From positions 1 to 48,884 of the forward strand of contig JYFJ02002919.1 in assembly GCA_000934665.2 (NCBI GenBank): 48,884 nucleotides of DNA. The letters are read 5' to 3'. Below are positions 6,406 through 35,782 of this stretch, one piece after another; position 1 is the first letter of the stretch, and each line of letters opens with the position of its first letter. A program made the translations under genes and the position numbers. The notes under the pieces were generated by a model. The model was given only the letters and a program-made list of their open reading frames with translations. It was not told the DNA's origin and ran no database searches. This stretch comes from Catajapyx aquilonaris. Lineage: Eukaryota.

Positions 6406-6967
6406 GTAGTAGTAGTAGTAGTGTAGTAGTAGGAGTAGTAGTAGTATTGTAGTTGTAGTAGTAGTAGTAAGAGTATTGTTGTAGTAGTAGTAGTATTGTA
6501 GTTGTAGTAGTAGTAGTATTGTAGTTGTAGTAGTAGTAGTATTGTAGTTGTAGTAGTAGTAAGAGTATTGTTGTAGTAGTAGTTGTAGTAGTAGTGTAGT
6601 AGTAGCTGCTGCTACTACTACACTACTACTGCTGCTGTTCCTAATTACTAGTAGTAACTATTAGTAGTAGTAGTACTAGTGTAGTAGTAGTAGTAGTAGT
6701 AATTGGGAACAGCAGCAGTAGTAGTGTAGTAGCAGTAGTGTTGTAGTAGTTGCTGCTGCTACTACTACTACACTATACTACTGCTGTTCCTACTACTACT
6801 ACACCACTACTACTACTGCTGCTGCTACTACTACTACTGCTTCTGCTGCTGTTCCTACTACTACTACTACTACTACTACTACACTGCTGCTGCTGCTACT
6901 ACGACGACTACTGCTGCTGTTGTTGTTGTTACTACTGCTGCTGCTGCTCCTGCTGCTGCTGCTGTTC

Positions 6968-7018
<51 letters not shown>

Positions 7019-7090
7019 TTGTTCCTACTACAACTACTACTACTACCACCACTACCAAGAGCTCTTGCTACTACTAAGTTACTACTACTA
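6406..7090. repeat. Compound trinucleotide microsatellite (GTA/TAG switching to CTA/CTG)
   Basis: Directly visible; orientation switches around 6600-6750. Confidence 0.95.
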
Positions 7091-14429: not shown

Positions 14430-15170
14430 TTTTATTTACGCTGAATCCTGTACTACAGGCTGTATTTCATTGAGATTATACACAATAATTAGTGCAAGTG
14501 CAACTTGTAATATATATTACTGTACGCTTTACTCTTTTCATTTAATTTCTCCTGTATTACAAATATTACAAGCTGTATTTAATTTTTGAGATCTTATGTA
14601 ATTAGTCCAAGTAACATTACTTGTAATAACAGTAAGCTTTGCTCTTCTTACCTGTAATTTCTCATGTATTACAACTTGTATTTCCTGTAATTTTTCCCTA
14701 CATTACAATTTGTATGTCCTGTAATTTTTCCCTACATTACAAGTTGTATTTCATGTAATTTTTCCTGCATTACAACTTTTCATGTAATTCCTGGATTACA
14801 AGTATTTCCTGTAATTTTCCTGTATTACAGGATGTATTTCCTGTAATTTCTCCTGTATTACTAGTACATCCTGTAATTTTCCTGTATTACAGGATGTATT
14901 TCCTGTAATTTCTCCTGTATTACAACTAGTACATCCTGTAATTTCTCTTGCATTACACTGCGCATTTAAACTGTATTTCTTACATGCAACCATACTTAAT
15001 TAGTGCAAGTAGCATTAATTGTAATAGCTATACGTTTTATACTCTTCATTTTATTTATGCTGAATCCTGTATTACAGGATGTATTATCCTTGAGATCATA
15101 CATATAATTAGTGCAAGTGTGATTACTTGTAATAACCATACGCTTGACTCTTCTTACCTGTAGTTTCCAT
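14430..15170. repeat. Degenerate tandem repeats (CCTGTATTACAGGATGTATTTCCTGTAATTT) between Dlish and MRPS15
   Basis: ~30-bp units at 14650-14960, flanked by longer related units. Confidence 0.75.
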
Positions 15171-15242: not shown

Positions 15243-16718
15243 TCACTCACTAGCGGCTAACTTCTGCTGTTCGCTCTGGACCTTTTCCAGCGTCGCTCTC
15301 GCATCCTCCAGCTGCCTTTTCTCTTCCGCAATCTCGTCAGGATTGTCCGTGAATCCCAGTTCTTCCCTTTCCTTCAGTATAAACTCCAACTTTGCCACCT
15401 TATCCCGCAAGAATCCTTCCTGCTGGCCCTCCAGCTCCTGCTTGTATGCATCCAGCTGCTCATTCACGAAGCGATCGCAGTGTTTGTCTGTCAATCGACG
15501 CAGGGACGACCGTCGGGTGATCCAGTGCGCAAACCTGCAATGGCACTCGGTGTAAGACTACGTCACGGAAGCTACTTGAAGCGCTTACATTGGATCGGGC
15601 TTGTACACGATGTTGAGCTGCTCCAGCACCCACTCAAAGCGCTTGTAGTCCCACCGCCTCAGGTGCGTGAGAAACTTCTTCCGTCGGTCGATCGCATGGC
15701 ACAGTTTTATCTTGTTCATCTTATCATACGGATTCTTCTCCATATGACCCTGCATTACGCGGATACGGCCGGTCAGCGCTCCAACTGTAAAGTAAAGACA
15801 GGTGAGCAGGTACGCAATTAGATGTACGCAGCACGTACTTGCAGCCTCGAGCGATCCTGTGTCCATCAGGTGCGACTGCGTCTTCCGCATGACATCCCTC
15901 TTGTACTGACGTGTCGCCAGAAGTCGGTTGGTGAACTCGAACGTGAACAACTTCTTGTCCACATCGCTCGCACTGTAATGACAAATCCGCTAATTAAATT
16001 GATAGGCGCAACATTCCACATTATTCTTGTACAAAAGTCGCAATGTTATACGCTCTTTTTGAGCAATAGTTGCAACTTTTTACCGGAACGAGATTACCAT
16101 GGCAATGGGATTACCATGGCAACGGAATTACCATGGGAACGGGATTACCATGGCAACGGGATTACCATGGCAACGGGATTACCATGGCAACGGGTTGTAT
16201 AATAGTTGTAATGTTGTACGTAATTTTTGTATGAAAAGTTGTAACGTTGTACGTTCCTTTTGTATGAAAAGTTGTAGCGTTGTACGTTCTTTTTTGTATG
16301 AAAAGTTGTCACGTTGTACGTTCTTTTTTGTATGAAAAGTTGTAACGTTGTACGTTCTTTTGCGTATAATAGCTGCAACATTTTATGTTCTGTTTTGAAT
16401 ATGAAGGTCGTGATGCCGTACCTTCACTTACGTTCAATAATAATTAGTTATATATTACGTAGTACTACGCCTGTTATACCTTTGGTACACTTTTGAGTCC
16501 CTGAGCATCTCGTGAACCTGGGTCATGTCAATCTTTGGAAGGGTCTCGAGGTCACCAGATTTTCTGGGGTCATGAACGGGTATGGGGTCAGGCCTGATCC
16601 ACTTTATGGTCAGGTCGGACTTGAACGCAGACACCGCAGGCGACACGTGAATAAGTCTCCTTATTTGACCCGCTAATAACCTTTGACCCCACAAGCCGAA
16701 CAATACACGACCAGACAT
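15243..16718 (-). CDS. MRPS15: Mitochondrial ribosomal protein S15 (uS15m); exons 16718-16480, 15972-15839, 15784-15589, 15534-15243
   Basis: Arg-rich transit-like N-terminus, KSDLTIKWIRP...KSGDL, and S15 core DTGSLEAAIGALTGRI...IDRRKKFLTHLRRWDYKRFEWVLEQLNI. Splice phases are consistent. Confidence 0.93.
16090..16370. repeat. Two adjacent minisatellites in MRPS15 intron 1: 17-bp GGGATTACCATGGCAAC (~6 copies) and ~33-bp TGTATGAAAAGTTGTAACGTTGTACGTTCTTTT (~5 copies)
   Basis: Directly visible. Confidence 0.9.
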
Positions 16719-17080: not shown

Positions 17081-17354
17081 CAACCGGAGTGAGTTGTACA
17101 TATTCGTTATCGCAAATTTCTTATCGCTAAATTTCATTCCAAAAAAAAAAAAGAAAAGTTACGCCACTAGTTGACACAATTTATTTTTTGGTTAACAAAG
17201 TTGCTCTCGTTGTTAAACTATTTGCGCCCAAGTTACTGCCCCAAGTTAGCACAAGTTACACCCATGTTAGCGCTCCAACAAAAATTTCTCTACTAACAAG
17301 GTTAGTACAGCTGTTCCAATGTGGTATAACCTAACATACATTTCCTACACCTAC

Positions 17355-17642
17355 AGATTGCATACGAATTGCGTACAAATTGCGTACAAATTGCATGAAG
17401 ATTGCGTACAAATTGCGTACAAATTGCATGAAGATTGCGTACAAATTACATACAGATTGCACACAAATTGCATACAAATTGCATGAAGATTGCGTACAAA
17501 TTACATACAGATTACACACAAATTGCATGAAGATTGCGTACAAATTGCGTCCAAATTGTATGAAGATTGCGCACAAATTGCGTACAAATTGCATGAAGAT
17601 TGCGTACAAATTGCATTTAGATTGCGTACAGATTGCGTACAT
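17355..17642. repeat. 11-bp unit minisatellite (TTGCGTACAAA / TTGCATGAAGA) in the probable ASCC3 5'-UTR intron
   Basis: Directly visible. An acceptor CCCTCCAG ends at 17685, just before the ASCC3 ATG. Confidence 0.9.
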
Positions 17643-17693: not shown

Positions 17694-20600
17694 ATGAATT
17701 ACCCGAGACTGGGCCAGGCTTTGCGGATCCTGTGCGATGTGGTGGATCCGACCGAATCACGACCGCCTCCTAAGCAGAACTTGACTTTGCTGCGGCAGAG
17801 GAGACTTGCGGAGGCCGCCTTCTCCTGGACGGACTTGAAGGAGAGGCTGGAGAAGGAGCTCTGGGAATGGAAGGAGCTGCAGAAGACGATGGCCCAGCTG
17901 CTGGGGCTGGCCAAGGAAGTCGTTGGTCAGTCCGGATGGGGGCGTACGGGCGTGCTTGTTCGTAACGAGCGGTTTTATTTGCAGGGAGCGACTGCAGCCA
18001 GCAGGTCATACGCGAGACGGCTGTTGAGCTGTTCCGGATGTTTCTAGATGAAAGCATGTTGACGCAGAGTAACGTGAACAAGCTGAAGCGGCAGTTCGGG
18101 TCGGCTGATCCGCATGTTGTGAAGCAGTTGATGCAGCTCGTTCAGTCCGTTCGGGAACGACTATCGGACGAGGCAACCGCCGCGATTAAAGCCGGATCGA
18201 AGCAGGACAACTGCGGCGATGAATTTGGGAAGAACATCACGTACAGATTCCCAGCGCCGTTTACGGATTGCACATTGACATTTCACAAGCGGATCGAAGG
18301 GCAAAAAGCGGATTCGGAGTTTAGTTTGGCTTACAGTAACGTAATGGCCGTTTCGAGCAAGCTGAAAGTCGACGCTAAAGAAAAGCAACAGAGTCAGGAG
18401 GTACGTATAATTAGATCTGAAATGGCAGCGACTACATCTGTTTGTTTCAGGCTGCGATGTACGGCCGACGCTGGTTAGAAGACGAGATCAAAAAGTCGTA
18501 CAAGACGGACAAACCGGCTGGAATGTCGCTATCGGAGTTTGCGTCGACGTTGCTCACACTTTTGGGCACATCGAAACGAAACGACGAGCTTCAGAATGAG
18601 GTACACTGCGGTATGATCGCAGCGTAATTTTTACTCACCCGGTTTTCAATTGCAGATCTTCGAGTTCCTCGGATTCGATCGGTTTGAGTTGACGCAAACC
18701 TTGCTTCAAAACCGGAGTAAGATTCTGGCCGAGACCGCACCGAAGTCCAACACGCCCGCGGGATCGTCGCAGTTTTTGCAATCAGGTCGGTTGTTATTGC
18801 CCGAATTTAGGAAATTAACTGATTGCAATATTGCAGTTTCGCAGTTGTCCGAGGGATCGAGTCGACCGATATTTGGATGCCAGGTTTTTGTGTTCTCAGA
18901 GGGGGAAAAGCAGCTGCGAAAGCAGTTCAGGAAAGAGGAGCGGAAGTTTCACCGGGTGGTCGCCGCTTCAAGAGCGGACGCGCCTGATGAAGACGACAAA
19001 TTCGATCCGATGTTACTCCGAATGAAGCGAAACGAGTCGCTAATTGCGGCTGTTAACCAGCCGATAATTAGAACCCGTATTTTGGCCAGCCATCCGCCGA
19101 AGGAAGTGTATCCGCATGTGTATGACCTATACGCACATGCCAGACAATCAGCAGGTAATCGCTGTACTCGTTTTAATAGCATGGAATTTACCGATCTGCA
19201 ATTGCAGGGTTCATATCGGGCGTTAAGATGGTGCTGCCTGAAGGATTCGAAAGGACCGAGAACACAATGTACGAGGAGGTTAACATTCCGGCGTCGGGCA
19301 AACCGCCGGTTAATGTCGGGAAAGAATTGGTTCCGATTTCTTCGTTAGATAAGGTGCAGTTTATTCCGTATGATTCCCGACGGACAATTTTTAAATCCGA
19401 ATTGTTTGCAGGTGGGACAAGCCGTGTTTGCGGGAATGGAAACGTTGAACAGGATTCAGTCCGTTGTGTTCGAAACGGCGTATGGAACTAATGAGAATCT
19501 TTTGATATGCGCTCCAACCGGAGCCGGAAAGACGAACATTGCGCTACTGGCTTTGACGCATCAGATTAAGCAGCATATTACTGAAGGAGTTATCAGAAAG
19601 GATGAGTTTAAGGTCCGACGTTTTTTGTTTTGTTAACCGGCTTGTTGTTAACGATTTCGTACTTTCAGATTGTGTATGTGGCGCCGATGAAAGCGTTGGC
19701 TGCGGAAATGACTGCGAATTTCAGTCGACGTTTAGCCCCGCTTGGTCTTCAGGTTCGGGAGCTTACGGGCGACATGCAGCTGACGAAAGCAGAGATGACG
19801 GCCACGCAAGTTCTGGTAACGACTCCTGAGAAATGGGATGTTGTGACTCGGAAAAGCACTGGCGACATCGCTTTAGTTCAGCTTGTTAAGCTGTTGATAA
19901 TCGACGAGGTGCATCTGCTTCATGGCGACAGAGGGCCTGTCGTTGAAGCGCTTGTCGCAAGGACGCTCCGGCTGGTACGTCCTGATGTGGTTCGCTATGG
20001 AGCAGTTTACATTGTTTGTACTTCAGGTCGAGTCGTCCCAACGGATGATACGCATCATCGGATTGTCCGCGACGCTTCCGAACTACCTCGACGTTGCAGC
20101 GTTCCTTCAGGTTAATCCGTATGTCGGCCTGTTCTCATTCGACTCCCGTTTCCGGCCTGTTCCACTGGGCCAGACGTTCATCGGGATCAAATCGACTAAG
20201 GTGCTGCAGCAGATGAACGATATGGACCAAGTTTGTTACGAGAAATGCGCCTTGATGGTTGAAAAGGGGCATCAAGTTATGGTGTTTGTACATGCGAGGA
20301 ATGCGACGGTCCGGACCGCTTTGGTCCTTCGAGAGATGGCGACCAAAAACGGTCAGCTTCAGTCGTTTCAAGCGGAACCTGGCCCGCGGATGGGGATCGC
20401 TCTGAAGCAAATTGCGAGGTCGAGGAACAAGCAGTTGGTGGACCTGTTCGGCGATGGATTCTCGATTCATCATGCGGGGATGCTTCGAAGCGATCGGTAC
20501 GTACGCAATCCGTATGCGATTGAACACTAATGATGCGTTTTACAGGTCGATGGTTGAGAAACTGTTTGGGGACGGATTCATTAAAGTTTTGGTCTGCACG

Positions 20601-23600
20601 TCGACGTTGGCTTGGGGCGTTAACTTGCCTGCTCATGCCGTTATCATCAAGGTACGTTTTCCGAAAGCGTCGCTTTGACACCACTAATTGCAGCCGTTGT
20701 TCGCAGGGAACTGAGATATACGACGCTAAGCATGGGTCGTTTGTGGACCTGAGCGTGTTGGACGTTCTTCAGATTTTCGGACGGGCTGGACGGCCACAGT
20801 TTGACAAATCGGGGCATGGAACTATCATCACGGCTCATGCGAAGCTCAGCCACTATTTGTCGCTGCTAACGAACCAGTATCCGATCGAAAGCAATTTCGT
20901 GACGTGTCTGGCGGACAATCTTAATGCGGAGGTAACGCTGTTGTAATCGTGGTCATAGCAAGTACTAACGGATTCTTTCAGATTGCGCTTGGAACTGTGA
21001 CGAACGTGAGCGAGGCTGCCGAGTGGCTGATGTACTCGTACTTGTACGTCCGAATGAGGCGTAACCCGCAAGCGTACGGGCTTAAGTACAACGTTGTTCA
21101 GGTGCGACTCATTTTAAAGTGTGGTTAAACGCGATTAATGTAACGTTCGCCAACAGGATGATCCGCAGCTGCTTGGAATACGGCTTGAGCTAATAGCGGC
21201 TGCGGCTAAGAAGCTGGATGCGGCCAAAATGATCCGTTATGCGGAAGACACGGGATACTTGTACAGCACAGACCTGGGCCGAACTGCGAGCCACTATTAC
21301 ATCAAGTACGACACTGTCGAGATCTTCAACGACATGGTGAAGCCGATAATGGACGAGTCGAGGATTATCGAGATGATTTCACATGCGCAAGAGTTTGAGC
21401 AGCTTAAGGTACGGCAGGTACGACTGTCGATGTTGTTGATACATTTTTGATGTCTACAAGGTGAGAGATGACGAGATGGAAGAGCTTGACGAGCAGACGA
21501 GGGAGCGATGCGAGGTTCCGGTGTTCGGCGGAAGCGAAAACACTCACGGGAAGGTCAACATCTTGATCCAAACGTTCATATCAAGAGGACGGCTCAACTC
21601 GTTCTCGCTCATATCGGACCAAAACTATGTCATTCAGGTACGTAAAACGTTAATGTCCGCAATAGAAGTACGTTCATTGTATTAATTTCCCGTAGAATGC
21701 AGTACGAATCGCTCGGGCCTTGTTCGAGATCCACCTTCTGAAGAATAACGCATTGTTGGCCGGTCGGCTTCTGAAGTTCAGCTTGTGTTTGGAGCAGCAA
21801 ATTTGGGGATTCGAAAGCGCGCTCAGGCAATTCCGAGTGTTCGGCGAGGACATACTTGTGAAGTTGGAGCAGCGGAATTTATCGATTGATCGGCTTCGAG
21901 ACATGAGCGTTAAAGAAATCGGTCGGTATTACTCGTATTAGTTAATTGGTTTATTAATTGCGGACATTTCGCAGGGTTACTGGTAAGCAACCAGAAGCAG
22001 GCTGCGATGTTGAAGAGTTGCGCTGAGGAAGTTCCGAGGCTTGAGCTCGATGCGACTGTTCAGCCCATTACGAGGACAGTGCTTCGGATTACAGTCGTCG
22101 TCACGCCTGATTTCAAGTGAGTCGTTATTGTCGTCTAATTGCGTTTAATTAACAAGCGGTTATTTCCAGCTGGAACGACCGGTTTCACGGGAAGACCTCG
22201 GAGTCCTTCTGGTTCTGGGTCGAGGATCCGGACAGCTGCTTTATTTACCATCACGAGCTGTTCATCCTAACGAAGCGGCAGGTTGTGAAGAAGGATCCGC
22301 AGCGATTAGTGTTTACAATACCAGTTGGCGAGCCTTTGCCGTCGCAGTATTACGTACGGGTACTGAGCAACAAGTGGGTCGACTCGGAAACGGTTTTCCC
22401 CGTTTCGTTCAAACATCTGATCCTTCCGCAGCATTACGCGCCGCATACAGGTTTGTTCGTAATTGCGGTTTTGCTGATCGCATTTTAATCGCACTTTGTC
22501 CGGCAGAGTTGCTGAATTTGGATCCGCTTCCCAAGAGCGTTTTGGAGGATCCGGCGATGGAGTCGCTCTATTCGTTCAGCCATTTCAATCCGGTTCAGAC
22601 CCACTTCTTCCACTGTTTGTACCATACGGACAGCAACGCTTTGATCGGCGCTCCGACTGGTTCTGGGAAAACCGTGGCGGCTGAACTCTGCATGTTCCGT
22701 GTCTTTCGGAAGTACCCGGGGATGAAATGCGTGTACATCGCGCCATTGAAGGCGCTCGTACGGGAGCGAATGGAGGACTGGAAGGTGAAGCTGACGAACA
22801 TCCTCGGGAAAAAGGTGGTCGAGTTGACTGGCGACGTTACGCCGGACATGGGAGCGATTGCGGCTGCGGACGTTATCGTGACCACACCGGAAAAGTGGGA
22901 CGGAATCAGCCGAAGCTGGCAGCATCGCTCCTACGTGCAGGTACGCCCTGATGTGCAACACGTAAATTGCATCTACATATATTAATTCGCTAGGCTGTGG
23001 CGCTTATTGTGATCGACGAGATTCATCTACTTGGAGAAGACCGCGGGCCTGTTCTTGAAGTTATCGTCTCGCGAACTAACTTCATCGCGGCTCATACTCA
23101 CAAGACATTGCGCGTCGTTGGGCTCTCGACGGCTCTGGCGAACGCACTGGATTTGGCTCACTGGCTGGGAATAGGCGAGCAAGGGCTGTACAACTTCAGG
23201 CCGTCCGTCAGACCAGTTCCGTTGGAGATACACATCGCGGGCTTCCCAGGAAAGCATTACTGTCCGCGGATGGCCACGATGAACAAGCCGACATTCCAAG
23301 CCATCAAACAGCATTCGCCGCACAAGGTCGGTTTATTACGATTGTACCGTGCTGTTTGATTAACCCCCGATTGTCTTACAGCCCACGTTGGTGTTTGTGT
23401 CGTCGCGTCGGCAGACACGGTTGACAGCGCTTGACCTCATATCGTTCCTCGCGAGTGACGGAAACCCGAAGCAATGGCTGCACACTTCGGAGGACGAGAT
23501 GTCGCAGGTCATCTCAGGTATTAAGGATATGCATCTGAAGCTGACTTTGGCGTTCGGGATCGGCGTACATCACGCGGGTTTGCAGGAGCGGGACAGACGA

Positions 23601-26600
23601 ACCGTGGAGGAGCTGTTCGTCCACCAGAAGATTCAGGTATGTATGACAATGCACCAGATGCGTCCGAGGGGCTAACCGGACTTTCCTTGTAGATTCTGGT
23701 GGCGACGGCGACGCTTGCTTGGGGCGTTAATTTCCCGGCTCATTTGGTCGTGATCAAAGGGACGGAGTATTACGACGGGAAGACACGTCGGTATGTGGAC
23801 ATGCCCATAACGGACGTCCTGCAGATGATGGGGCGAGCTGGACGTCCGCAGTTTGACGACCGGGGCGTCGCATGCGTCTTGGTTCAGGAAGGGAAGAAGA
23901 ACTTCTACAAGAAGTTTCTGTACGATCCGTTCCCCGTCGAGTCCTCGCTTCTGGAGGTCCTTCCGGATCATATCAACGCGGAGGTGGTCGCGGGAACCAT
24001 CAAGAGCAAGCAGGACGTGTTGGACTACCTCACTTGGACATACTTCTTCCGACGCCTGGTCCAAAACCCATCGTTTTATCACTTGGAGACACTCGATCCG
24101 GACCATCTCAACAAGTATCTCTCGGGTTTGGCCGAGCGGGCCATGCAGACGCTACAGTTCGCCGGATGCGTCGAAATCGACAGCGTAAGTTGCCTCGGTT
24201 ACAAATGTTTACTTTAATTGTTACCCATTTACGGTTCAACTCGACTGGTAAGTACATAACATGCTGATTTCCGAGGTACAAATGCGTTTAATTGTGTTTC
24301 ATTTGAAGCGAGGGCAGCCGCAATGTGGAAATATTTGATGGACCGAAAGAGGCGACATGTTCTTCGCGGGTACTGTTCGCTTTGCGAGCCGCAGAGTGAC
24401 ATTCATCGGCAAGAGCAAGTGATGCTGCTGGAATCGTATCGGCTGAAGTGCGACAACTGGAAGGTGATGACTGTGGATCGGACGAGAGATGCGCAGCTTG
24501 CGTTGTTGGACGGACGACGAAAGTTCAACTTGGATCCCGAGAGCGGCGTTCGGTATCTCGTTGAACGTGGGATCGTTCAATTGAAGCCGGACGCAATCGC
24601 ACAGTTTTTGTACGGAGGGGAACGTCTAAGTAAGGTTGCGATTGGCAACTATTTGGGCGACCATCACGAGTTCAACACAATGGTTCTGGCCGCATTTTTG
24701 GAGCTGTACGACTTGTCCGGATTGGTATTGATGGAAGCGCTCCGACAGTTTTTCTGGAAGTTTGTCCTTCCCGGCGAAGCGCAGCAGGTGTCCCGCATAC
24801 TCGAGTGTTTCTCGCAGCGTTACTGTCGGCTCAACTCGGCCGTGTTTGCCAATACTGACGCCTGCTTTCAGCTATCCTTCTCCATCATAATGCTGAACAC
24901 AATTTTGCACAACCCGAACGTTAAGGACACGATGACTGTCCATCAGTTTGTGACGATGAACCGAGGCGGAAATGACGGACAGAACTTTCCCGAGGAGCTT
25001 CTCATCAGCATTTACCATGACATCCTGCAGGAACCGTTTGCGTCTCCGGAAGAAATGGGCCCGTTTGTCAATCCGGAGAAGGAAGGCTGGCTGTGGAAAC
25101 GAGGACGGTTGTGCAAAGGGAAACGGCGATGGTTCGCATTGAACGACGGCTGTCTCTACTATTTTAAGAGTGCGTTTCAGAAGAAACCGGCCGGATTTAT
25201 CCCGCTGCAGAACGTCCGAGTTCAGCACTGCCGGAAGCCGCATCATTTTCAGCTCCGTCCGCTCGGTTCTGAACGTCTGAAGTGCTGCAAAGCGAAGGAG
25301 AACGGCACTGTCATAGTCCGATATCAATCGGCGTACCGGATGTCGGCTGTCGATTGCGAGGAAAAGGACGAGTGGATGAATTGCATCAGGGAAAGTCTCC
25401 GCAGCAGTTCGTCGTTCGATAACGACTGTTTTGAAGAGGAATTATATTAGCGTTTTATTCGACTTGCTATGTATTTTTGAGTCACATTACACATGTTTAT
25501 TGTACCTGTTCATTGCTGTTTTCATAACGTGAACATCGTATTCGTAAGGTTGTGTGTGAGCGATTCCCTCAGTGTCGATAAATTATGCACTGGTTTTTCC
25601 AGGACAACCGTGGATTGATGTCGACGCCACTTGGTCGCATCGCATCATACTACTACCTTTCCCATGAGACGATGCAGCTGTTTAGAGACAAAATGGGTTC
25701 GGATCTGCCTCTTGAGGATATCCTGGACATCATGACCAACGTGAAGGAGTACGAAGAGATTCCTGTGCGTCACAACGAGGATATCATGAATGGGTACGTT
25801 GCGGTCCGTACTGATCATGTGCGGTTCTTACGCATTCATTACTTCCGCAGGGATCTAGCGAAGAGCTGTCCAGTGGAGGTTAATCCGTACACGATGAACT
25901 CCCCGCATACGAAGGCGCACCTTTTGTTCCAATCCCATTTCTCCCGATTGGATCTTCCCTGTTCGGACTACTTCACGGACCTCAAGTCCATTTTGGATCA
26001 GGCCATCCGAATAGTACAGGCCATGATTGACGTCTGCGCCGACCGAGGTTGGCTTCAGACGACCCTCCGCCTTCAGCAGCTCATGCAGATGATAGTGCAA
26101 GGTCGGTGGGTGTCCGACCCTCCGATTCTGACCCTCCCGCACTTGGAGAGGCATCACCTGCACTGCTTCCAGTCTTCCGTACGAGGAATGCGGCCGCTCA
26201 GCCACCTTCCGCAGCTTGTGGCGGCATGTTCGCGGGACCGAGGCCAGTCGCATTTCCTGCAGGACATGCTGCAGGATGAGCTGGAGCCGACGGAGATTGA
26301 AGAGGCAAGTTGGACAATGCTGGTTCGATTTGTGTTTGAATGTTTTTCATCCGCAGATTCGTAATGTGTTGAGCGAAATGCCGCAAGTTAATCTGAGTGT
26401 GAGCGTGCGTGGCTGGTGGGACGTCCGTGGCGAGGAGGTCCGTCCGCTCCAGTTGAAGCTTCCGCCGGGTGTCCCCAGTATGTGGTACCCTATCCACTGC
26501 GGACAGGAGTACACATTGGTTGTTGAGATGCAGCGGCTTGTCGGATGGAAAGGAAGGAGCAGGGAAAGATTCAAGAAGGTGCACGCCCCGCATTTCCCGA

Positions 26601-26988
26601 AACCAAAAGACGAAGGGTGGTTCCTGGTGCTGGGAACCACCGAGGATCGCGACCTCGTTGCGCTGAAGAGGGTCAGCACAGGGAAATCGCCAAGGAACAC
26701 ACACTACATCAGTCTGCGGACACCGGATAGGACAGGTACGTATCGCGTATGTTTGTATCCGCAGCGTTAATTACGTTTAATTGTCCTGCAGGTCGTATTA
26801 TCTACACGCTGTACGTCATGTCCGACTCGTACTTGGGGCTGGACCAACAGTACAGCCTGAAGTTTGAGCTGCTGCCTGCTTCGGCAAAGGCCATGCCCAA
26901 CTTGGACGCTATCGAGATGGACAACGTGGCCTTGGAGGAAGACTGGGACGCATCTCCGACCAAGAAGGACGTGGATTCCGTCTGGTGA
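17694..26988 (+). CDS. ASCC3: Activating signal cointegrator 1 complex subunit 3, tandem Ski2-like helicase with Sec63 domains; ~25 coding exons
   Basis: N-terminal [11 protein letters not shown]. Cassette 1 has [21 protein letters not shown]; cassette 2 has [30 protein letters not shown]-terminal [10 protein letters not shown] and [12 protein letters not shown]. Introns are ~50-60 nt except 24185-25602. Confidence 0.95.
24323..25450 (+). CDS. Divergent cytohesin-family ARF-GEF (Sec7 + PH), single coding exon, nested in an ASCC3 intron
   Basis: Uninterrupted 375-aa ORF. Sec7: GRRKFNLDP...[11 protein letters not shown]...[22 protein letters not shown]...[27 protein letters not shown]...KRRWFAL...LYYF...GFIPLQNV. 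Confidence 0.92.
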   Translation: MWKYLMDRKRRHVLRGYCSLCEPQSDIHRQEQVMLLESYRLKCDNWKVMTVDRTRDAQLALLDGRRKFNLDPESGVRYLVERGIVQLKPDAIAQFLYGGERLSKVAIGNYLGDHHEFNTMVLAAFLELYDLSGLVLMEALRQFFWKFVLPGEAQQVSRILECFSQRYCRLNSAVFANTDACFQLSFSIIMLNTILHNPNVKDTMTVHQFVTMNRGGNDGQNFPEELLISIYHDILQEPFASPEEMGPFVNPEKEGWLWKRGRLCKGKRRWFALNDGCLYYFKSAFQKKPAGFIPLQNVRVQHCRKPHHFQLRPLGSERLKCCKAKENGTVIVRYQSAYRMSAVDCEEKDEWMNCIRESLRSSSSFDNDCFEEELY

Positions 26989-27339: not shown

Positions 27340-27925
27340 CTATTTATAGCCACTTATTCTAAATAACGGCTATAGCCGTGATTTCATGTTGGATGATTAT
27401 TTCGTTGCTGCTGTGCTTCTTTCTGCCCTGGAATCGCCAATTGAGATATAGCCGTTCTAAGTAACGGCTATAGCCGTGATTTTAGCTTGGCTGCTTATTT
27501 CGTAGCTGCTGTGCTGCATTCTGCCCCAGAATCGCCAATTGAAATATAACCGTTCTAAGTAACGGCTATAGCTGTTATTTAGGCTGGCTGCTTATTTCGT
27601 AGACGCTGTGCTTCATTGTGCCCCCGAATCGCCAATTGAGATGTAGCCGTTTTAAGTAACGGTTATAGCTGTTATTTTAGACTGGCTGCTTATTTTGCAG
27701 CTGCTGTGCTTCATTCTGCCCCGGAATCGCCAATTGAGAAGTAGCCGTTCTAAATAACGGCTATAGCCGTGATTTCCTGTTGGTTGCTTATTCTGTAGCG
27801 GCTGTGCTTTATTCTGCCCCTGAATCGCCAATTGAGATATAGCCATTCTTAGTAACGGCTATAGCCGTGATTATTAGGCTGGCTGCTTATTTCGTAGCTG
27901 CTGTGCTTCATTCTGCCCTGGATCC
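27340..27925. repeat. ~102-bp tandem repeat, ~5.5 copies, directly upstream of TRAPPC5
   Basis: GCCGTTCTAAGTAACGGCTATAGCCGTGATTT...GCTGTGCTTCATTCTGCCC...GAATCGCCAATTGAGATATA is repeated. Confidence 0.92.
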
Positions 27926-28012: not shown

Positions 28013-28843
28013 ATGTCTGGTCAGGGGATCACCATTTCGGCCGTGCGACCCAAGACGTCGATCCTGGACAAGAGTTTGAGCAAAGGGAAAGGGGAGGTCA
28101 GCCTGAGCGTGTTTGCCCTCCTGTTCTCAGAGGCAGTACAGTACTGTCAGAACAGGTAACTACTTCACATCTTGTTGCGGGTGTTACGTTACCCAAATAA
28201 TGCCCCCTCCATTCATTGCAGGGTGTACACTGTTCCGGAGCTGCAGACGAAGCTGTCGGAGATGGGCCAGCACGTCGGGGTGAGGGTCGTCGACCTGTTG
28301 TTCGTCCGGGAGAGGAACTACAAGAGGGAGGTTAAGCTCCTGCAGATCCTCCAGTTCATCAAGACCACCCTTTGGAAGGTCTGATTTTGATCCGCACGTA
28401 TTAAAAGTACGCGACTAATTACGTTACGTTTCCAGACCCTCTTTGGCAAGGAGGCGGATAAGCTGGAGTACGTGAATGACGATCAGCGCACGTACTACAT
28501 CATAGAGAAGGAGCCTCTGGTCAACTGGTTCATATCCGTACCGAAGGACAAAGGGAGTCTCAACTGCGGTGCATTTGTGGCCGGAATCATCGAAGCTGTT
28601 CTCACCACATGCAATTTTGTGAGTCACGTTCGGTTGACAAGACGAAACACTTTTTGCTCAGAATCTGTTATGCAGCTTCCAATTTGCATATTTCGGTATA
28701 ACGCGAATATGGAAACTGATGACATTAATTTCATTGCTTTGCAGCCTGCCAAAGTGAGTGCTCATTGGCACAAAGGTACGACTTACATGATCAAGTTTGA
28801 TGATTCTGTGATCGCTCGGGACAAACAGCTGGAAGATCGTTAG
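28013..28843 (+). CDS. TRAPPC5: Trafficking protein particle complex subunit 5 (Trs31); exons 28013-28155, 28222-28378, 28436-28618, 28745-28843
   Basis: SILDKSLSKGKGEVSLSVFALLFSEAVQYCQNR...YIIEKEPLVNWFISVPKDKGSLNCGAFVAGIIEAVL...AHWHKGTTYMIKFD. Confidence 0.95.
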
Positions 28844-29026: not shown

Positions 29027-32000
29027 TCATGCGCAGTTCCGAGGATCTCTGTTTCCTCCCTGTGGATCTTGTAAATCGATCCTCTGGAAGACTGGGCACT
29101 GGCCCCACGTTCCGTTCCTGCGGAATTCCATGCACTCCCTCATTTCTGAGGCTGTGACTTCGAAACTTGCATTGCCGTAGGAACTGATCTTGAATACCGA
29201 TACCCTATCCGTAATGTTTGGTGTGGGTAGCTCATACGCTTTGGCCTCGTAGCGCAAAATTAGAGAGTCGTCGACGCCGAGGTAAATGTCACCAGTGTAC
29301 ACTTCCCTGTGAAAATTATTGGCTCGTGTCAAGTTGGTTGCCATTTCAGAAAGAGTGCGGCAGACTCACCGGGTGTTTTCCATGGGATACCTGAAGCCTC
29401 CGTTGGCCGCATACAAGCAAGCGTATTCCGGCACGCCCGTGAACGACTGGAGGCTGATCCGGATGGTCCGCTTGGATAGATTAATTGCGAATATGAAGCT
29501 TTCCAATCCGGGAAGGGATCTGCGGAGGGTAACACTAGTAGCAATCTGTCCCGTATGTACTGTACGGGGGACGTACCTGGCAATAGCAAGTGCGCCGTGC
29601 CCCTGAACCGTCTGAATTTCCAAGTTTCCGTCCCTGATTGTGGTGTGGTTTCTCAGACCCAGAAGCCTGTGATACAGATATAGTTGTCTGGCTTGCTCGT
29701 CCATGTCCCGACTGATTTTGTAGTCACACATGTCCTTAGCCAATGGCAAGTTGTCGCCTTTAACTGTCAACTGTTACACTCTCTGCATTTCATAACGCTA
29801 ATAATCTTGGTACGTACTTAATAAAGAGGAATGAGTCCAATGCACCTCGGAATTGTAGTAATCAAGTGACATGCCGCTGTGTTCGGCGCTTCTTGCGTCA
29901 TCTGCGTCAACTACACGCGGCTTGGGGTCATCGTCAGTGTGAATGGTTTCGTCGCCTGCTATTGCCATGACCGTGCCTGGCAGCATGAACATGAGGGACT
30001 TGATCCCGTCGTTTAGCTTCCCATGTATCCTCGAACCCAACGCAGGATGGGCATGATGTGACAACTAGTTGTAGTAAAAGAAATGTTTTTTAAATAAATA
30101 CCACAGCGCAATGTATTGGATGCGTACAACAAAATGTACAATCTGTCACAAAAAAAGTTTTGGTCACTTTGGCCCAAGTTTTCCGTTTCATTTTCGGCCT
30201 AAACTTTTTGTGACAAATAGTACCGTACTGTTATTAATGAGCAATTTGCATACCGGCCAATTGAGCCAAGAGTCGCTGGGAATCTCCCGGAAATAAGAAG
30301 TGATATTATACATGAGCTCTATGGAACTGTAGGATTCCAGAGAAGCCAACGATTTCGAGTCCATGTCGAAGAAGAAGTTGTTGGGAACAATAGTGGTTGT
30401 GTTTGTCAACGCCGCTTGGTAGCTGCACACGGAGGAAAGGTCCCCGTCGCTGATATCGACAATCATAATCCTGTGGGGGAGGGAAAAAAAATTTGCCATT
30501 AATTGTTAACGAATTGTACTCTCATGATAGTTGAGTTTGAATCGACGGTACGCACTTTATCGCATCATGTGAATGTGTGAATATTATGATGATAATGTGT
30601 GAATATGACAGGGTATGATGACAATGTGCACTAACTTTTTATCTCCAGTTTTATTTTCAACCTCATCCAGGCACTTCCTGAACTCCTGCAGGACCCCCAC
30701 AACTTCCTCTTGATTGTATGTGTAATCATGAGCGAGGTACCGGTACTCCGTCGTTCGCACGTACTCCTCCTGGCCACCACCGTTTGGGCTTTCACTCCTC
30801 AGGTCCTCATCTTCGAAGAGGTACCCAGAGTGCAACACTCGGATCCCATCCACTCCTACCTCGCCGGTCCAGTACCTGATGATCTCCTGCAACGACATGA
30901 TGTCGGTGAGGTAGCCCGGACAAACTTCCTACTTGATTATGATATGTATGTGATGTGATGTGAAATGTTCTCACCTTCATCTCTTCTAGCACTGCCGGAT
31001 TCCGGTAGTTAAGGTCAGCTTCTGACCTGTCGAAAGCGTGGTAGTAGAACATGGCTCTCTGTTCGTTCCACTCCCATGCTGATCTGCCGTATCGACTCAA
31101 CTGTAAAGTGTTACAGCAGTATATTGTATAGCTTTTTTTTGGGGGGTGTGGCGATAGGAACCCTCTTTTCTTACCCAGTTGTTAGGAGGAATTGGGGTAG
31201 CGTCTGGGTGTGTGCTGTTGTAGTTGCTCCATACGTAAAAGTCCTTGTATTTTTCTTCACCTTTCACGGAGCTAATAAACCATTTGTGCTGGACACTCGT
31301 GTGATTCGGTATGAAGTCGATTATCAGCCTTGTACCTGAGGAATGCCGATGTAATGCCGTAAAATTAATTGCATGTTTTTTTTATATAAATTAAAAATTA
31401 AATACTGTACCTCGACTTCTCAAGTAGTTAACCAAACGCTTCATGTCTCCAAATGCAGGGTTGACAATCCTGAAGTCCTGAACGTCATATCTGTGGTCTC
31501 TATTGGGCGACTTGAATATCGGACCCAGCAAGAGTGTTCTAACTCCAATGCTTTCCAAGTACGCCAGTTTTTCCTGAATCCCTGCAATGGGTATTTTGTA
31601 TACCACAAGATGAAAGCGTATAGTAATAGCATGCAAGTACTAATACATCGCACTATATTCATACAGTGCAACAATCTTTTTGGGTGTTATAGCACACATG
31701 ATCACTCACCTTCTTCTGAATCTTTCCAGTCCTTCTCAGCGTCCAACAGTGAATGCGGATATATCTCGTATATGACCTGCATTCGCCACCAATCTTCATC
31801 CGGTTGACAGTTAGGCTCGGTCATCGCTCCGTACCAAAACCGCAGACCGTGGTTCGTGCGAGGAGGACCAGCCGGTATCATAACCAAGAAGAGTAGCATC
31901 AGAACGTTGGCGAGAATGAGCAGGATTATGTATATGCAGCAACAGTATATGATGCACGGTCTCTCTCTGTGCACCAGAAGCAGTGCTGCACCAGGATGAA

Positions 32001-35000
32001 CTCTACGTGGTGCATCCGTGGCAGCATCCGACGTCTGGACCGTCTTCGGTGAAGACGACAACTCGGTTTCTTTGGTGCCCCAAGTGTCTTCGAACTGGAT
32101 GTGTTTTGAGAGAGTGTCGAGACGCTTCACTAGGTCATCACTACTTATGATCTCACTCTCTGTCGTGATTGGGGTTGTAGTTGAGAGTAGCCGTCTGCTC
32201 CTCAGTTCCACCATGTTTTCCTTTTGAAATTGGGAGTGAGGAGACTCGAGATTGACGATCAGTGTCATAGGCACGGGGATTTTCTCGTTGTACTCAATTT
32301 CCTGTGGAAAATACATTGAAGGATTTGACAGTGCACCACACCTTAGAGATTTGAAAATGCTCACCCAATTGGATGAGGCTACCGGCTGCTGTGCTCTTCT
32401 TATCTCCAGTGTAGCCATTCCTGACGCCGAATCCTCCTGTTCAGACGACTCCTCCGATAAAGTGCTCATCAAATCCGGCGTCTGTTCATTGAAGACACCT
32501 CGTGATGCTGTGACCCTTTCGATGACAGGCTCGTTCACAGGATAATCAGATTCAAACTTGTTGGAATCGAGCTGAGCATTATCCTGCTCCACGTCTGGTT
32601 CCGTAAGGTGTGAGGTGCTGTCAGCCTCCTGATCGCTGCTGTACACAGGTACTGCAGCCATCCTCTTCATCAATCCCTCATCGTCGTCATACAATCCAAA
32701 ACGAAAGCCCAGTTCAGGAGGTGTCTGCTCCTCATCGGAGGGTGGCTGGTCATCAATGACCTCTGTGGTACTTTCACCCGGAGGTGTCGGGAGTGAACCT
32801 GGCGATGGCTCTTTAGGTAAGGAAGTCACCGAATATTCCAACACGGAAATGACTTGCTCTTCATCTACGGGAGTAGAAACTCCCGATGTGAAGTTGGTCG
32901 GGGAAGACTCGGCCTCACTTTGGTACGTGTTGGACTGTCCTTCAGACGAATAAGTCGCTGCCAGCACTTCTTGCAAAGTCTCTTCGATGGACTGCTGGAG
33001 AGTGGCCTCGCGAGAGTCAGTCTCTGATTGTTCTTTGAGAGTCTCAGGCCCTTCGCTTTCTGGGAGTTCTTCTGGCCCTTCTTGAGATGGATAAGCCTCT
33101 GTCTCTTCTTGAGGCGGATAACTCTCTGGCTCTTCTTGAGTTGGATAGGTCTCTGGCCCTTCTTCAGGTGGACAAATCTCGGGCCCTTCTTGAATTGAAT
33201 AAGTCTCGGGTTCTTCTTGAGTTGGATAAGTCTCTGTCACTTCTTGAAGTGGATAACTCTCTGGCTCTTCTTGAGTTGGATAAGTCTCTGTCACTTCTTG
33301 AAGTGGATAACTCTCTGGCTCTTCTTGAGTTGGATAGGTCTCTGTCACTTCTTGAAGTGGATAACTCTCTGGCTCTTCTTGAGTTGGATAAGTCTCTGGC
33401 CCTTCTTCAGGTGGACAAATCTCGGGCCCTTCTTGAATTGAATAAGTCTCGGGTTCTTCTTGAGTTGGATAAGTCTCTGTCACTTCTTGAAGTGGATAAC
33501 TCTCTGGCTCTTCTTGAGTTGGATAAGTCTCTGGCCCTTCTTCAGGTGGACAAATCTCGGGCCCTTCTTGAATTGAATAAGTCTCGGGCCCTTCTTGAGT
33601 TGGATAAGTCTCTGTCACTTCTTGAAGTGGATAACTCTCTGGCTCTTCTTGAGTTGGATAAGTCTCTGTCACTTCTTGAAATGGATAACTCTCTGGCTCT
33701 TCTTGAGTTGGATAAGTCTCTGGTCCTTCTTCAGGTGGACAAATCTCGGACCCTTCTTGAGTTGAATAAGTCTCGGGTTCTTCTTGAAGTGGATAGGTCT
33801 CTGGCTCTTCTTGAGGTGGGCAAATCTCGGACCCTTCTTGAGTTGAATAAGTCTCTGATTCTTCTGGAAGTGGATAACTTTCTGGCTCTTCTTGAGTTGG
33901 ATAAGTCTCCGTCACTTCTTGAAGTGGATAAGCCTCCGGCTCTTCTTGAGCTGTATGATCTTCTGCCCCTTCTTGATAGGAATAAGCATCTGTCACTTCT
34001 TGAAGTGGATACGCTTCTGTCTCCTCTTGAGGTGGATACATTTCTGTCTCCTCTTGAGATGGATACATTTCTGGCTCTTCTTCAGATGGATAAGTGTCAG
34101 GCTCTTCTTGATCCTTGAAAAGTGTTAGCTGCTCTTCAGGCAGTGATATCTCATCAGGCTCGTCTTGGACCTGGGACGTTTCTAGTTGCTCTTTAGACGA
34201 AAGTGTCTCAGGCTCTTGATTGTCCGGCTGTTCTCCAATCGACACTGTCTCGAACTCTTCTTTGGAATGGGATATCTCGGGTTCTACTTTAGTTGGAGAA
34301 GTAGTTGGCTGCTCTTCAGACGGAGACGGTTTGATCTCGGGCTCCTGGAAAGTCTCTGGTAGCTTTTGAGATGATAATTCTGCGGGATCTTCATGGGCAT
34401 AGGAAATCTCTGGATGCTCTTGAGACTGCGATATCTCTGGTGTTTCTATGGCCTGCGAAGATGTTGGGTACTCTGTAGATCGTAGCATTTCGGACTGTTC
34501 GTTTGACTGAAGAGACTCAGGCTCTACTATTGATAGAAATGAAGACTCCAGCTGTAGCTGGGACTGGGAAGTACCTTTCTCAGTTGAAGGATATTTAGCC
34601 ACTTGATATTTCGCGATGGGCGTTTCATTGATAGAAGTCACAGGTTGCTCCTGTGGCTGCTGCACTAAAGCTGCGTCCGATTCGCAGTGGCAAACAACTG
34701 CCGATGAATGCGGCACTCGAAAGATTCTATCTGTCACTGGAGGTACTTCTTCAGGTGTGTGGTATCCCAGAGTATTATTATCTCCTATGATATGCACTCT
34801 TTTTTTCTCTTTAGACGGGGTCACAGCTGGCTTTTCTATGGCCTGGGAAGTGGTGGGGTGTTCCTTAGGAGGATGTGTGAAGAGTTGATCTTCCATGGGA
34901 GAAGTAGCTGGTTTTTCGGTGTCTCGCCTAGGGAAAGCAGCTGGCTTTTCTATGGCCTGGGAAGTGGTGGGCTGTTCCTTAGGAGGATGTGTGAAGAGTT

Positions 35001-35782
35001 GATCTTCCATGGGAGAAGTAGCTGGTTTTTCTGTGTCTTGCCTAGAAGCAGCTGGCTTTTCTATGGCCTGGGAAGTGGTGGGCTGTTCCTTAGGAGGATG
35101 TGTGAAGAGTTGATCTTCCATGGGAGAAGTAGCTGGTTTTTCTGTGTCTTGCCTAGGGAAAGCAGCTGGTTTTTCTATGGCCTGGGATGTGGTGGGCTGT
35201 TCCTTAGGAAGATGTGTGAAGAGTTGATCTTCCATGGGAGAAGTAGCTGGTTTTTCTTTGTCTTGGCTAGGGAAAGCAGCTGGTTTTCCTTTGTCTTGCC
35301 TAGGAAAAGCAGGTGGTTTTTCTTTATCTGGAGAATATGTAAATTTTCTGCCAGGCGGATAAATCATTACTATTTCTTCAGGTGGAGGTGAACTTGATTT
35401 TGTTTCAGAATCGCAGTGACACGCCATTGCCGACATATGTGGAACTCGGTCATGTTGTTCAACCTCTTTGATCTCTTCAGATGGTGTTTCAGATTGTGTT
35501 TCAGATTGTGTTTCAGATCCTGAGTAAATGCCAATTCTCGGGATCCTTAAGTTTGACAGCCTGTTTGTACGGAGATTAATGAGAGAGAACAAACGGCATG
35601 TTATTGAGTATATATCGCTGGAACAATGCATCAAATGTTGTTGTTTTTTTCAATAGAAAAGACAGACCTTGTCGGATGTGACCGAAAATGTTTCCGAATC
35701 TTGTCCAACCTGGACAATCTGGTCTGTGGGAATACTGATATAGGCCCTGGTGCGCCCGACGTGTGAACATGACCATGGTGCC
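29027..35782 (-). CDS. SLC3/rBAT-like type II membrane protein: long acidic repeat N-terminus, one TM helix, catalytically degenerate GH13 (maltase-like) ectodomain; 5' end uncertain
   Basis: TM helix IYCCCIYIILLILANVLMLLFLVMI, then PNCQPDEDWWRMQVIYEIYPHS, GIQEKLAYLESIGV, YDVQDF, IIDFIPNHTS, PPNNW, DLNYRNPAVLEEMK, GVDGIRVLH and MLPGT...GDE across ~11 exons with GT-AG junctions. Confidence 0.85.
33075..34110 (-). repeat. Coding 27-bp (9-aa) tandem repeat, EEPESYPLQ / EVTETYPTQ / EGPEICPPE variants
   Basis: Visible in DNA and in ORF 31702..35634. Confidence 0.9.
34830..35320 (-). repeat. Coding ~114-bp (38-aa) tandem repeat EKPATSPMEDQLFTHPPKEQPTTSQAIEKPAAFPRQDT, 4 copies
   Basis: Visible in DNA and in ORF 31702..35634. 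Confidence 0.9.

Follow-up and report, generated by a model that had tools for sequence, protein, structure and literature searches.

How does a complete Sec7–PH coding sequence come to fill most of one intron of ASCC3, and is it a gene, a duplicate or a relic? The question arises in the window analyzed here, a stretch of 48,884 nt from Catajapyx aquilonaris. The reading that best accounts for the locus, with a probability of roughly 0.7, is that of a lineage-restricted cytohesin duplicate, possibly RNA-mediated, which has evolved fast but under selection and which forms its own transcription unit inside intron 20 of the host gene.

Host gene and nested frame

A homology search, tblastn, a splice-site model and the resulting spliced frame define an ASCC3 gene of obelus type, with its start ATG at 17694, its stop at 26988 and no internal stop in the 2,227 codons. 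There are 23 introns, one per 291 nt, and 22 of them measure 49–59 nt. Introns 1 to 12 are 59, 50, 55, 53, 58, 56, 52, 49, 55, 50, 55, and 52 nt long; introns 13 to 23 are 58, 53, 53, 56, 53, 55, 56, 1,418, 57, 52, and 56 nt long. One of them (26305–26356) has a GC donor. The sequence-only reading had described a sole long intron among introns of about 50–60 nt, and this is confirmed, intron 20 being the only exception. Its boundaries come from a splice-site scan scored against four ASCC3 proteins, and in tblastn residues 1616 and 1617 of the Lycorma ASCC3 protein are contiguous across the gap. The features of the host and of the nested frame, all on the forward strand, are the following.

17694–26988, + strand: ASCC3 (obelus-type), 24 exons, 2,227 aa
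23693–24184, + strand: ASCC3 exon 20, with the final part of RecA2 of cassette 2 and the winged helix, last residue 1821
24185–25602, + strand: ASCC3 intron 20, 1,418 nt, phase 0, GTAAGT...CAG
24323–25450, + strand: nested cytohesin-like coding frame without introns, 375 aa and a stop codon
24503–25039, + strand: Sec7 domain, residues 61–239 (Pfam, E 2.2e-64)
25076–25399, + strand: PH domain directly after Sec7, residues 252–359 (Pfam, E 3.6e-16)
25603–25793, + strand: ASCC3 exon 21, with the first part of Sec63 of cassette 2; next intron at 25794–25850

The stretch 23693–24184 encodes a winged helix of SNRNP200 type (Pfam PF23445, E 3.6e-26), and the frame of exon 21 matches Sec63 (Pfam PF02889, E 5.6e-18). 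The insertion, previously assigned to the second helicase cassette, does lie there on Pfam and the gene model, between these two domains and after residue 1821. The nested frame takes up 1,128 of the 1,418 nt of the intron (80%), leaving 138 nt on the 5′ side and 152 nt on the 3′ side; it is wholly contained in the intron, and the ASCC3 exons join across it. Translation and Pfam bear out the claim of an intact frame for a 375-aa Sec7+PH protein, on the host strand and lacking coding introns. An open frame of 396 codons with such domain scores is far beyond chance. Fusion with ASCC3, or exonization of the nested frame, can be rejected on two counts: upstream of the ATG, no acceptor is in frame (of the six AG sites in 24185–24330, none shares the frame of the ORF), and translation continuing out of exon 20 meets a stop at 24215.

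The encoded protein has the makings of a folded Arf exchange factor. The catalytic glutamate (E152) is kept in the motif LPGEAQ, at an invariant alignment column, and the closest solved structure by sequence is cytohesin-3 (E 2.8e-97). The AlphaFold model has a mean pLDDT of 83.4, mostly above 90 in residues ~60–240 and 260–360, with low confidence in the first 52 and last 12 residues. The modeled Sec7 domain superposes on that of ARNO with an rmsd of 1.0–1.4 Å; the modeled PH domain has seven strands and a helix, with pLDDT mostly above 90, and matches the Grp1 PH domain with a TM score of 0.80.

A divergent cytohesin and its likely origin

The nested protein shares with canonical cytohesins (cytohesin-1 to -4, including Grp1 and ARNO, and steppke) a Sec7 domain followed directly by a PH domain, the catalytic glutamate and the Arf-groove motif IIMLNT, and Grp1 and ARNO are its top matches in both sequence and fold. 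It differs in being only 44–54% identical to members that are 71–91% identical to one another, in having a short and uncertain N-terminal heptad region, and in lacking introns in its coding sequence. Canonical cytohesin genes are multi-exon. The other candidate family is BRAG/IQSEC, which also has a Sec7–PH tandem without the cytohesin type of autoinhibition; BRAG2 Sec7–PH is also matched by the model (E about 1e-21). However, identity to BRAGs is 25–27% against 41–45% to Grp1, and the PDB sequence score is E 1e-35 against 1e-97 for cytohesin. The comparison indicates that the nested protein is derived from cytohesins and not from BRAGs.

Cytohesins are defined by heptad repeats, a Sec7 domain, a PH domain and, at the C-terminus, a helix overlapping a polybasic region (PMC5752578), and residues 252–260 of Grp1 contribute to autoinhibition (PMC5752578). 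The C-terminal element is missing in the nested protein, whose acidic tail lacks any K/R run and ends about 10 residues past the PH helix (residues 364–375, pLDDT <50), whereas the cytohesins of Anopheles and walrus run on into RKKK. Aligned with either Grp1 or the Anopheles cytohesin, the autoinhibitory Sec7–PH linker shows a gap of five residues. At the N-terminus, a single helix is modeled at residues 26–47 (pLDDT ~42–61), residues 1–24 are below 50, and some database alignments begin at residues 20–22. A sequence alignment to Grp1, laid on the published list of the 12 PIP3-contacting residues of its PH domain (PMC3173609), shows six positions kept (K273, R277, K282, R284, Y295, and K343) and six changed (G276 deleted, V278L, T280K, R305A, N354Y, and H355Q). 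The nested protein retains a Sec7 domain predicted to be catalytically competent and a PH domain predicted to fold, while the C-terminal helix, the polybasic region and part of the linker, the elements that autoinhibit canonical cytohesins, are gone. It probably acts as an Arf-GEF whose regulation and membrane targeting are altered. Cytohesins are among the most conserved signaling proteins of animals (>70% identity between insects and mammals), and a selected copy that has lost about half its identity together with its autoinhibitory parts would be a natural experiment on the indispensable Sec7–PH core.

The divergence is extreme. Identity is 44–50% to 38 animal cytohesins, and 46–54% in local alignments to ten cytohesins; these ten are 51–91% identical among themselves, and the seven arthropod and vertebrate ones 71–91%. 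Orthologue-level conservation with steppke or the canonical arthropod cytohesins would be of another order, as the arthropod cytohesins among the 120 matches listed are 74–98% identical to the Anopheles protein. In a quick tree, the nested protein has a terminal branch of 4.62, where the median is 0.21. The protein falls there into an unresolved polytomy, and the tree points to no donor lineage. Across most of its length no match is above ~52%: a word-indexed search covered 5.8 billion clusters and gave 73 hits, and a full HMMER scan covered 1.84 billion representatives and gave 7,948. The exact protein sequence is absent from a collection of 15 billion proteins, which may reflect an annotation miss or a genome outside the collection. 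A metagenome scan with the protein found no orthologue, and only two of its 28 pattern matches encode a relative, both weak and confined to the PH domain (43% and 36% over ~58 residues).

The host gene has not followed this course. Its ASCC3 is 55–63% identical to nine other ASCC3 proteins, which is within their own range, and the comparison indicates that the acceleration is specific to the nested gene while the host protein diverges at a normal rate. The ASCC3 tree places the host, an arthropod, outside all sampled insects, and the framing of the nested gene as a steppke, which suggests a fly, does not hold. A dipteran affinity is ruled out by this tree and by the diagnostic columns, of which the nested protein shares none of eight dipteran ones; it shares seven of the 16 that separate arthropods from vertebrates.

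The origin most likely lies in a lineage-specific duplication. In the proposed sequence of events, a canonical cytohesin would have been duplicated, possibly through an RNA intermediate, and the copy inserted into an ASCC3 intron of formerly ~55 nt, where it diverged rapidly. The case for a duplicate is how well cytohesins are conserved in every other arthropod sampled. One can instead suppose that it is the organism's only cytohesin, a steppke orthologue that lost its introns, moved into the ASCC3 intron and evolved fast, with no canonical parent elsewhere. Divergent arthropod cytohesins do exist, with quick-tree branches of 2.28 in Eurytemora and 1.09 in Cordylochernes. Yet a sole orthologue seems unlikely given the narrow identity range of the listed arthropod proteins, the similar range (71–91%) that canonical cytohesins keep across phyla, and the absence of a general rate acceleration in the host ASCC3; moreover, the loss of autoinhibition and of half of the lipid contacts seems improbable in an essential single-copy gene.

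For the favored duplicate, the part played by RNA is less clear. The sequence-only reading had called the gene a retrogene, and what stands of this is the absence of coding introns, where ~3.9 would be expected in 1,128 nt at the ASCC3 density. No A-run that could be a poly(A) remnant follows the nested stop, and the insert is flanked only by short repeats at the level of chance, not by a target-site duplication. Both marks may have decayed at such divergence. Retroposition is unproven, the missing introns being its sole positive sign.

The same reading took nesting on the host strand to be exceptional. It is not so in D. melanogaster, where, in the sections of Assis 2016 used here (PMC5174743), 28.7% of nested genes share the strand of their host, and introns are absent from 71.5% of these. 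The pattern described there is of young, often RNA-mediated and fast-evolving genes, the same-strand ones intronless, that arise by insertion into long introns. The present gene resembles the same-strand intronless class of that account in being short, on the host strand, without coding introns, fast-evolving and apparently a duplicate. It differs from it in the host, whose other introns measure 49–59 nt, and in taking up 80% of the intron that contains it. By analogy, the locus fits the known class of fast-evolving duplicates nested in introns, and, as same-strand nested genes are mostly intronless in that source, it would be a new case, one whose protein is a variant. A literature search returned no report of a cytohesin nested in an intron and none of a steppke retrogene.

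Flanks and expression

Little room is left around the frame for signals of its own, and nesting is here extreme: the strand is that of the host, a promoter would have less than 140 nt to itself, and ~150 nt is left for 3′-end formation. Such tightness would make the locus a compact system for the study of how a guest and its host escape interference in transcription and in splicing. The flanks contain the following.

24200–24295, + strand: bipartite motif (TACAAATG ... TTTAATTGT) in the 5′ flank, two copies starting at 24200 and 24277
24205–24247, + strand: possible first coding mini-exon (candidate), adding 19 residues if 24248–24308 is spliced
24248–24308, + strand: candidate intron of the nested gene, 61 nt, GTAAGT at 24248 and AG at 24307–24308
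25451–25602, + strand: 3′ flank, 152 nt, GC 0.375

The candidate mini-intron had been noticed before, and its sites are indeed present. Scored with weight matrices that derive from the introns of ASCC3, the donor reaches 7.9, the median of real donors and within the top 1.6% of 3,128 GT sites, and the acceptor 5.9, within the top 4.8% of 2,741 AG sites. Its assignment to the 5′ UTR is less secure than the sites themselves, since splicing would put the ATG at 24205 in frame, so that the mini-intron may be coding. Its removal would also eliminate two upstream ATGs, at 24261 and 24282. The bipartite motif has no other occurrence of its combined pattern in the window, and its repetition is matched in alignment score by 17 of 2,000 shuffles. 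Among core-promoter motifs in 24000–24325, neither TATA nor DRE is found, and the only initiator-like site, TCATTT at 24299, is uninformative because it overlaps the candidate acceptor. At the other end, there is no AATAAA between the nested stop and the ASCC3 acceptor, the sole polyadenylation-signal variant of the 3′ flank being GATAAA at 25577, 26 nt before that acceptor.

On the favored reading, the nested gene would be a compact transcription unit of its own, starting at or just upstream of the boundary between exon 20 and the intron. Its transcript would lose the 61-nt intron, and its 3′ end would fall either within the final ~30 nt of the host intron or downstream of them. The gene is probably expressed in a restricted manner, which would keep competition with ASCC3 splicing rare. 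In the sequence-only reading, the promoter would be exonic or the product would come from ASCC3 pre-mRNA, and polyadenylation behind the nested frame would truncate ASCC3.

It is improbable that the nested gene has no promoter and is made from ASCC3 primary transcripts, whether by intron retention with internal initiation, by trans-splicing of a spliced leader onto 24308, or by cleavage in competition with the acceptor at 25602. Some features agree with such routes: the host donor lies only 138 nt from the ATG, an acceptor-like site precedes the ATG by 14 nt, and the only polyadenylation-signal variant is close to the host acceptor. The host is also placed outside the insects, and trans-splicing occurs in some crustaceans. 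However, the distance from the good donor at 24248 to the acceptor at 24308 is that of a typical intron, a point in favor of ordinary cis-splicing; the unspliced leader contains three upstream ATGs; a cistron behind 1,821 ASCC3 codons would be poorly translated; and no spliced leader was seen. A specific form of the idea, in which each ASCC3 primary transcript yields either ASCC3 mRNA or, through the acceptor at 24308 and a 3′ end at the host acceptor, the mRNA of an autoinhibition-free Arf-GEF, is highly doubtful. If true, one promoter would supply either a helicase for ribosome rescue or a regulator of membrane traffic, as a binary choice.

Selection on the nested frame

Being intronless and strongly divergent, with altered residues at 24 family-invariant positions (including R148V, D157S, K264C, W266G, and H335Q), the frame could be taken for a dead copy, such as a processed pseudogene. 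This is very improbable, as the substitutions avoid the invariant sites. With columns defined from 34 canonical cytohesins, the family consensus is kept at 83 of 107 invariant columns against 49 of 150 variable ones (<90% conserved), an odds ratio of 7.1 (p 7e-13). Simulated neutral drift leaves the frame open in 22 of 2,000 runs at 82% identity, in one at 68% and in none at 57%; here, 375 codons are open at ~50% divergence. GC3 is 0.645 in the nested ORF and 0.666 in ASCC3, codon usage correlates with that of ASCC3 in frame (r 0.75) against 0.41 and 0.19 in the other frames, and both domains are modeled with confidence. Residue conservation and the drift simulation thus uphold the earlier view of a retained gene, and the nested frame is, on this evidence, a protein-coding gene under selection and not a pseudogene. 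The changes at the 24 invariant residues and the loss of half of the PIP3 contacts could nevertheless mean a decaying rather than a new function.

An assembly artefact or foreign DNA, which might be supposed for an arrangement known from a single window, is hardly credible, since the insert is bounded precisely by an intact donor and an intact acceptor with the flanking ASCC3 exons contiguous in the protein alignment, its GC3 and codon usage are those of the host gene, and its flanks (GC 0.41 and 0.375) resemble local introns. Transposon or foreign cargo was likewise rejected, there being no terminal repeats or target-site duplications at the insert. Elsewhere in the window, Rfam identifies only a tRNA, away from the nested gene, and the opposite strand carries a 3.9-kb open frame that is likewise uninterrupted, so that intronless coding sequence is not unique to the nested gene.

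Host gene and nested frame

The window is eukaryotic DNA, in which a cytohesin-like gene (the guest) lies within an intron of an ASCC3 helicase gene (the host).

Features of the window (coordinates, strand, description)
13026-13865, +, open frame encoding an SH3 domain (Pfam E 6e-15), surrounding DNA GC-rich (0.55)
17694-26988, +, ASCC3 (obelus-type) helicase gene (homology, tblastn, splice model)
24185-25602, +, ASCC3 intron 20, from GTAAGT to CAG, 1418 nt, phase 0, after residue 1821
24323-25450, +, nested ORF, same strand as ASCC3, uninterrupted, 375 codons
~28013-28843, +, multi-exon gene for a TRAPP-complex subunit, directly downstream of ASCC3 (Pfam TRAPP E 7e-16 on the third exon frame)
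31702-35649, -, uninterrupted 1315-codon frame rich in E, P, T, and Q, no Pfam match
42727-43200 and 45342-45815, +, two frames, each with a galactosyltransferase domain (Pfam PF01762, E 2e-7 and 3e-9)
43935-44006, +, tRNA gene between the galactosyltransferase frames (Rfam, 40 bits)

With the ASCC3 of Lycorma as query, tblastn gives collinear segments over 18460-26886, and a 164-aa exon translation matches ASCC3 proteins at up to 76% identity. Every GT-AG candidate junction was scored against four ASCC3 proteins, one GC-AG intron and the first intron being added separately. The resulting model has 2227 codons and 23 introns, without internal stop. All introns but one are 49-59 nt long (22/23); intron 20 separates the winged-helix domain from the Sec63 domain in the second helicase cassette (Pfam). 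Its donor at 24185 is weak on a local donor matrix (1.8 versus a median of 7.7) because its exonic side is poor, the intron side being GTAAGT, and a stronger donor sits 63 nt into the intron, at 24248. Intron 22 (26305-26356) has an apparent GC-AG pair with a GCAAGT donor, the sole non-GT donor among the 23.

The nested ORF contains a Sec7 domain (Pfam E 2.2e-64) and a PH domain (E 3.6e-16), and is a cistron separate from ASCC3. That it might be a part of ASCC3 was rejected: translation continued from exon 20 into the intron terminates at 24215, all six AG sites in 24185-24330 fail to join exon 20 in frame with it, and acceptor-like sites within it mostly lack pyrimidine tracts. The ORF, intron, and strand were re-derived, and every coordinate of the sequence-only reading was correct.

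Minisatellite arrays are unusually dense upstream of ASCC3, with periods of 17-183 nt (6405-7055, 8829-9416, 10575-11211, 14651-14957, and 16087-16397). A 98-nt tandem repeat (27357-27922, 5.8 copies, 85% matching) takes up the greater part of the interval from the 3′ end of ASCC3 to the start of the TRAPP-subunit gene. The 31702-35649 frame includes units of 27 nt (38.6 copies, 33071-34111) and 114 nt (4.1 copies, 34824-35288) and a hydrophobic stretch near its C-terminus; its product resembles a repetitive protein, membrane-bound or secreted, that is specific to the lineage.

Divergence and constraint

The nested protein is very unusual for the cytohesin family. A word-indexed search of 5.8 billion clusters returned 73 matches, none with more than 50% identity at 80% coverage or more, and the exact sequence is absent from a collection of 15 billion proteins. 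A full HMMER scan covering 1.84 billion representatives yielded 7948 matches; the best near-full-length ones are 51-52% identical, and the first of these belongs to the Anopheles gambiae cytohesin cluster. By contrast, the Anopheles protein is 74-98% identical to the arthropod cytohesins within its top 120 relatives. Its identity to walrus cytohesin-1 is 71%. In a pairwise table with ten cytohesins, the nested protein shows 46-54% identity, versus 71-91% among the seven from arthropods and vertebrates. In a quick IQ-TREE analysis of 41 rows, where its placement is ambiguous, its terminal branch is 4.62 versus a median of 0.21. The ASCC3 of the window shows 55-63% identity to nine others, which is within the range that these have among themselves. 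Hence, the acceleration is specific to the nested gene.

The host lineage was placed with a FastTree phylogeny of 41 ASCC3 rows, a sample without crustaceans, myriapods, springtails, or other chelicerates besides a trombidiform mite. The ASCC3 of the window is sister to a 27-row clade that contains every insect sampled; the joint clade, outside of which the mite falls, has a support of 95, and the insect clade excluding the window one of 99. The nested protein has none of eight dipteran diagnostic columns, and at 16 columns separating arthropods from vertebrates it shows seven arthropod and two vertebrate states. The tree and these columns thus indicate an arthropod that is not among the neopteran insects as sampled, and the tree and the dipteran columns rule out a fly lineage.

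Constraint on the nested gene was judged by three internal tests: site pattern, neutral simulation, and composition. Relative to 34 canonical animal cytohesins, the nested protein has the consensus residue at 83 of 107 invariant columns, versus 49 of 150 columns that are less than 90% conserved (odds ratio 7.1, p 7e-13); seven rows were excluded beforehand, namely the query, two outgroups from outside the animals, Eurytemora and Brachionus, which have the longest branches, and two unnamed rows. Its divergence has therefore respected the core of the family. When the coding sequence was randomly substituted down to 82% identity, the frame stayed open in 22 of 2000 runs; at 68% it did so in one of 2000, and at 57% or less in none of 2000. 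GC3 is 0.645 for the ORF versus 0.666 for ASCC3, and its codon usage correlates with that of ASCC3 (r 0.75, versus 0.41 and 0.19 for two off-frames); GC is 0.41 and 0.375 in the flanks of 138 and 152 nt, near the value of the short introns (0.425). The AlphaFold model (35-row alignment) has a mean pLDDT of 83.4, and most of either domain exceeds 90; its Sec7 part superposes on that of ARNO with an rmsd of 1.0-1.4 Å, and its PH part matches that of Grp1 (cytohesin-3) with a TM of 0.80. Site pattern, simulation, composition, and modelled fold together make a processed pseudogene very unlikely.

Catalysis and regulation

The nested protein retains the catalytic glutamate E152 (LPGEAQ) and the IIMLNT groove motif. 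In cytohesins, PMC5752578 describes a Sec7-PH linker plus a helix at the C-terminus that occlude the catalytic site, and a construct without the polybasic region that is fully active. Whereas canonical cytohesins have this C-terminal helix/polybasic region, the nested protein stops about ten residues past the PH helix, with an acidic tail, and its linker shows a 5-residue gap. PMC3173609 lists 12 residues of Grp1 that form hydrogen bonds with PIP3; mapped by alignment, six were kept and six changed, including R305A and H355Q; the same source describes H355 as crucial for binding and insertion. The protein is probably an exchange factor that is active but differs in its regulation and in how it is targeted to membranes. 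An alternative is a partial loss of function, and the change of 24 invariant residues speaks for it. The first 52 residues include one helix, modelled at low confidence. The whole model fits autoinhibited Grp1 poorly (rmsd 17-19 Å) although single domains fit well, a mismatch given little weight because AlphaFold domain placement is uncertain.

Origin and candidate expression signals of the guest

The sequence-only reading had proposed a retained same-strand retrogene, which is partly supported. That the gene is intact and not a dead copy is borne out by the constraint tests and the modelled fold, but apart from the lack of introns the marks of retroposition are absent. The coding sequence has no introns, versus 3.9 predicted from ASCC3 density, which fits an RNA-mediated duplicate; inspection downstream of the nested stop revealed no poly(A) remnant, and no direct or inverted repeats above chance flank the insert. 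The odds of retroposition are about even. Because cytohesins are conserved in every other arthropod sampled, the guest is probably (about four chances in five) a duplicate rather than the sole cytohesin orthologue. The minus-strand frame at 31702-35649 is also uninterrupted over 3.9 kb, so an intronless frame is not unique to the guest.

In D. melanogaster, according to PMC5174743, about 10% of genes are nested, 71.3% of them on the opposite strand; internal genes are intronless in 71.5% of same-strand versus 37% of opposite-strand nestings, and are often young RNA-mediated duplicates, fast-evolving and tending to testis-specificity. The guest fits the intronless same-strand class. It differs in degree: the host intron was evidently a short one, not a long one (compare PMC5174743), and the guest, although its family is exceptionally conserved, diverges more than any other animal member seen here. 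The literature searched contained nothing on a nested cytohesin or a steppke retrogene. The genomic arrangement is of a known class; the protein is a novel cytohesin variant.

Upstream of the guest ATG, a candidate mini-intron of 61 nt (24248-24308) has the top donor-like site of all intron 20 (score 7.9, equal to the median for genuine donors and within the top 1.6% of all GT sites) and an acceptor scoring 5.9 (top 4.8% of AG sites). Its removal would delete the upstream ATGs 24261 and 24282 and bring ATG 24205 in frame, for a 394-aa product; the mini-intron may therefore be coding. A start at 24205 would place the transcript start at most 20 nt from the host donor, or within exon 20. Between the nested stop and the ASCC3 acceptor there is no AATAAA, only the variant GATAAA at 25577, 26 nt before the acceptor; the same holds for the 3′ region of ASCC3, where GATAAA is at 27134, and the TRAPP-subunit gene has AATAAA about 45 nt past its stop. 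The 3′ end of the guest may overlap the host acceptor, or its transcripts may run into downstream ASCC3 exons.

A bipartite motif, TACAAATG ... TTTAATTGT, occurs in two copies, at 24200 and 24277, the observed score being reached in 17 of 2000 shuffles. A 33-nt tandem repeat (17352-17641, 8.8 copies), about 50 nt upstream of the ASCC3 ATG at 17694, carries ACAAATTGCA twice per unit, and this unit weakly resembles the TACAAATG motif of the 5′ flank of the guest.
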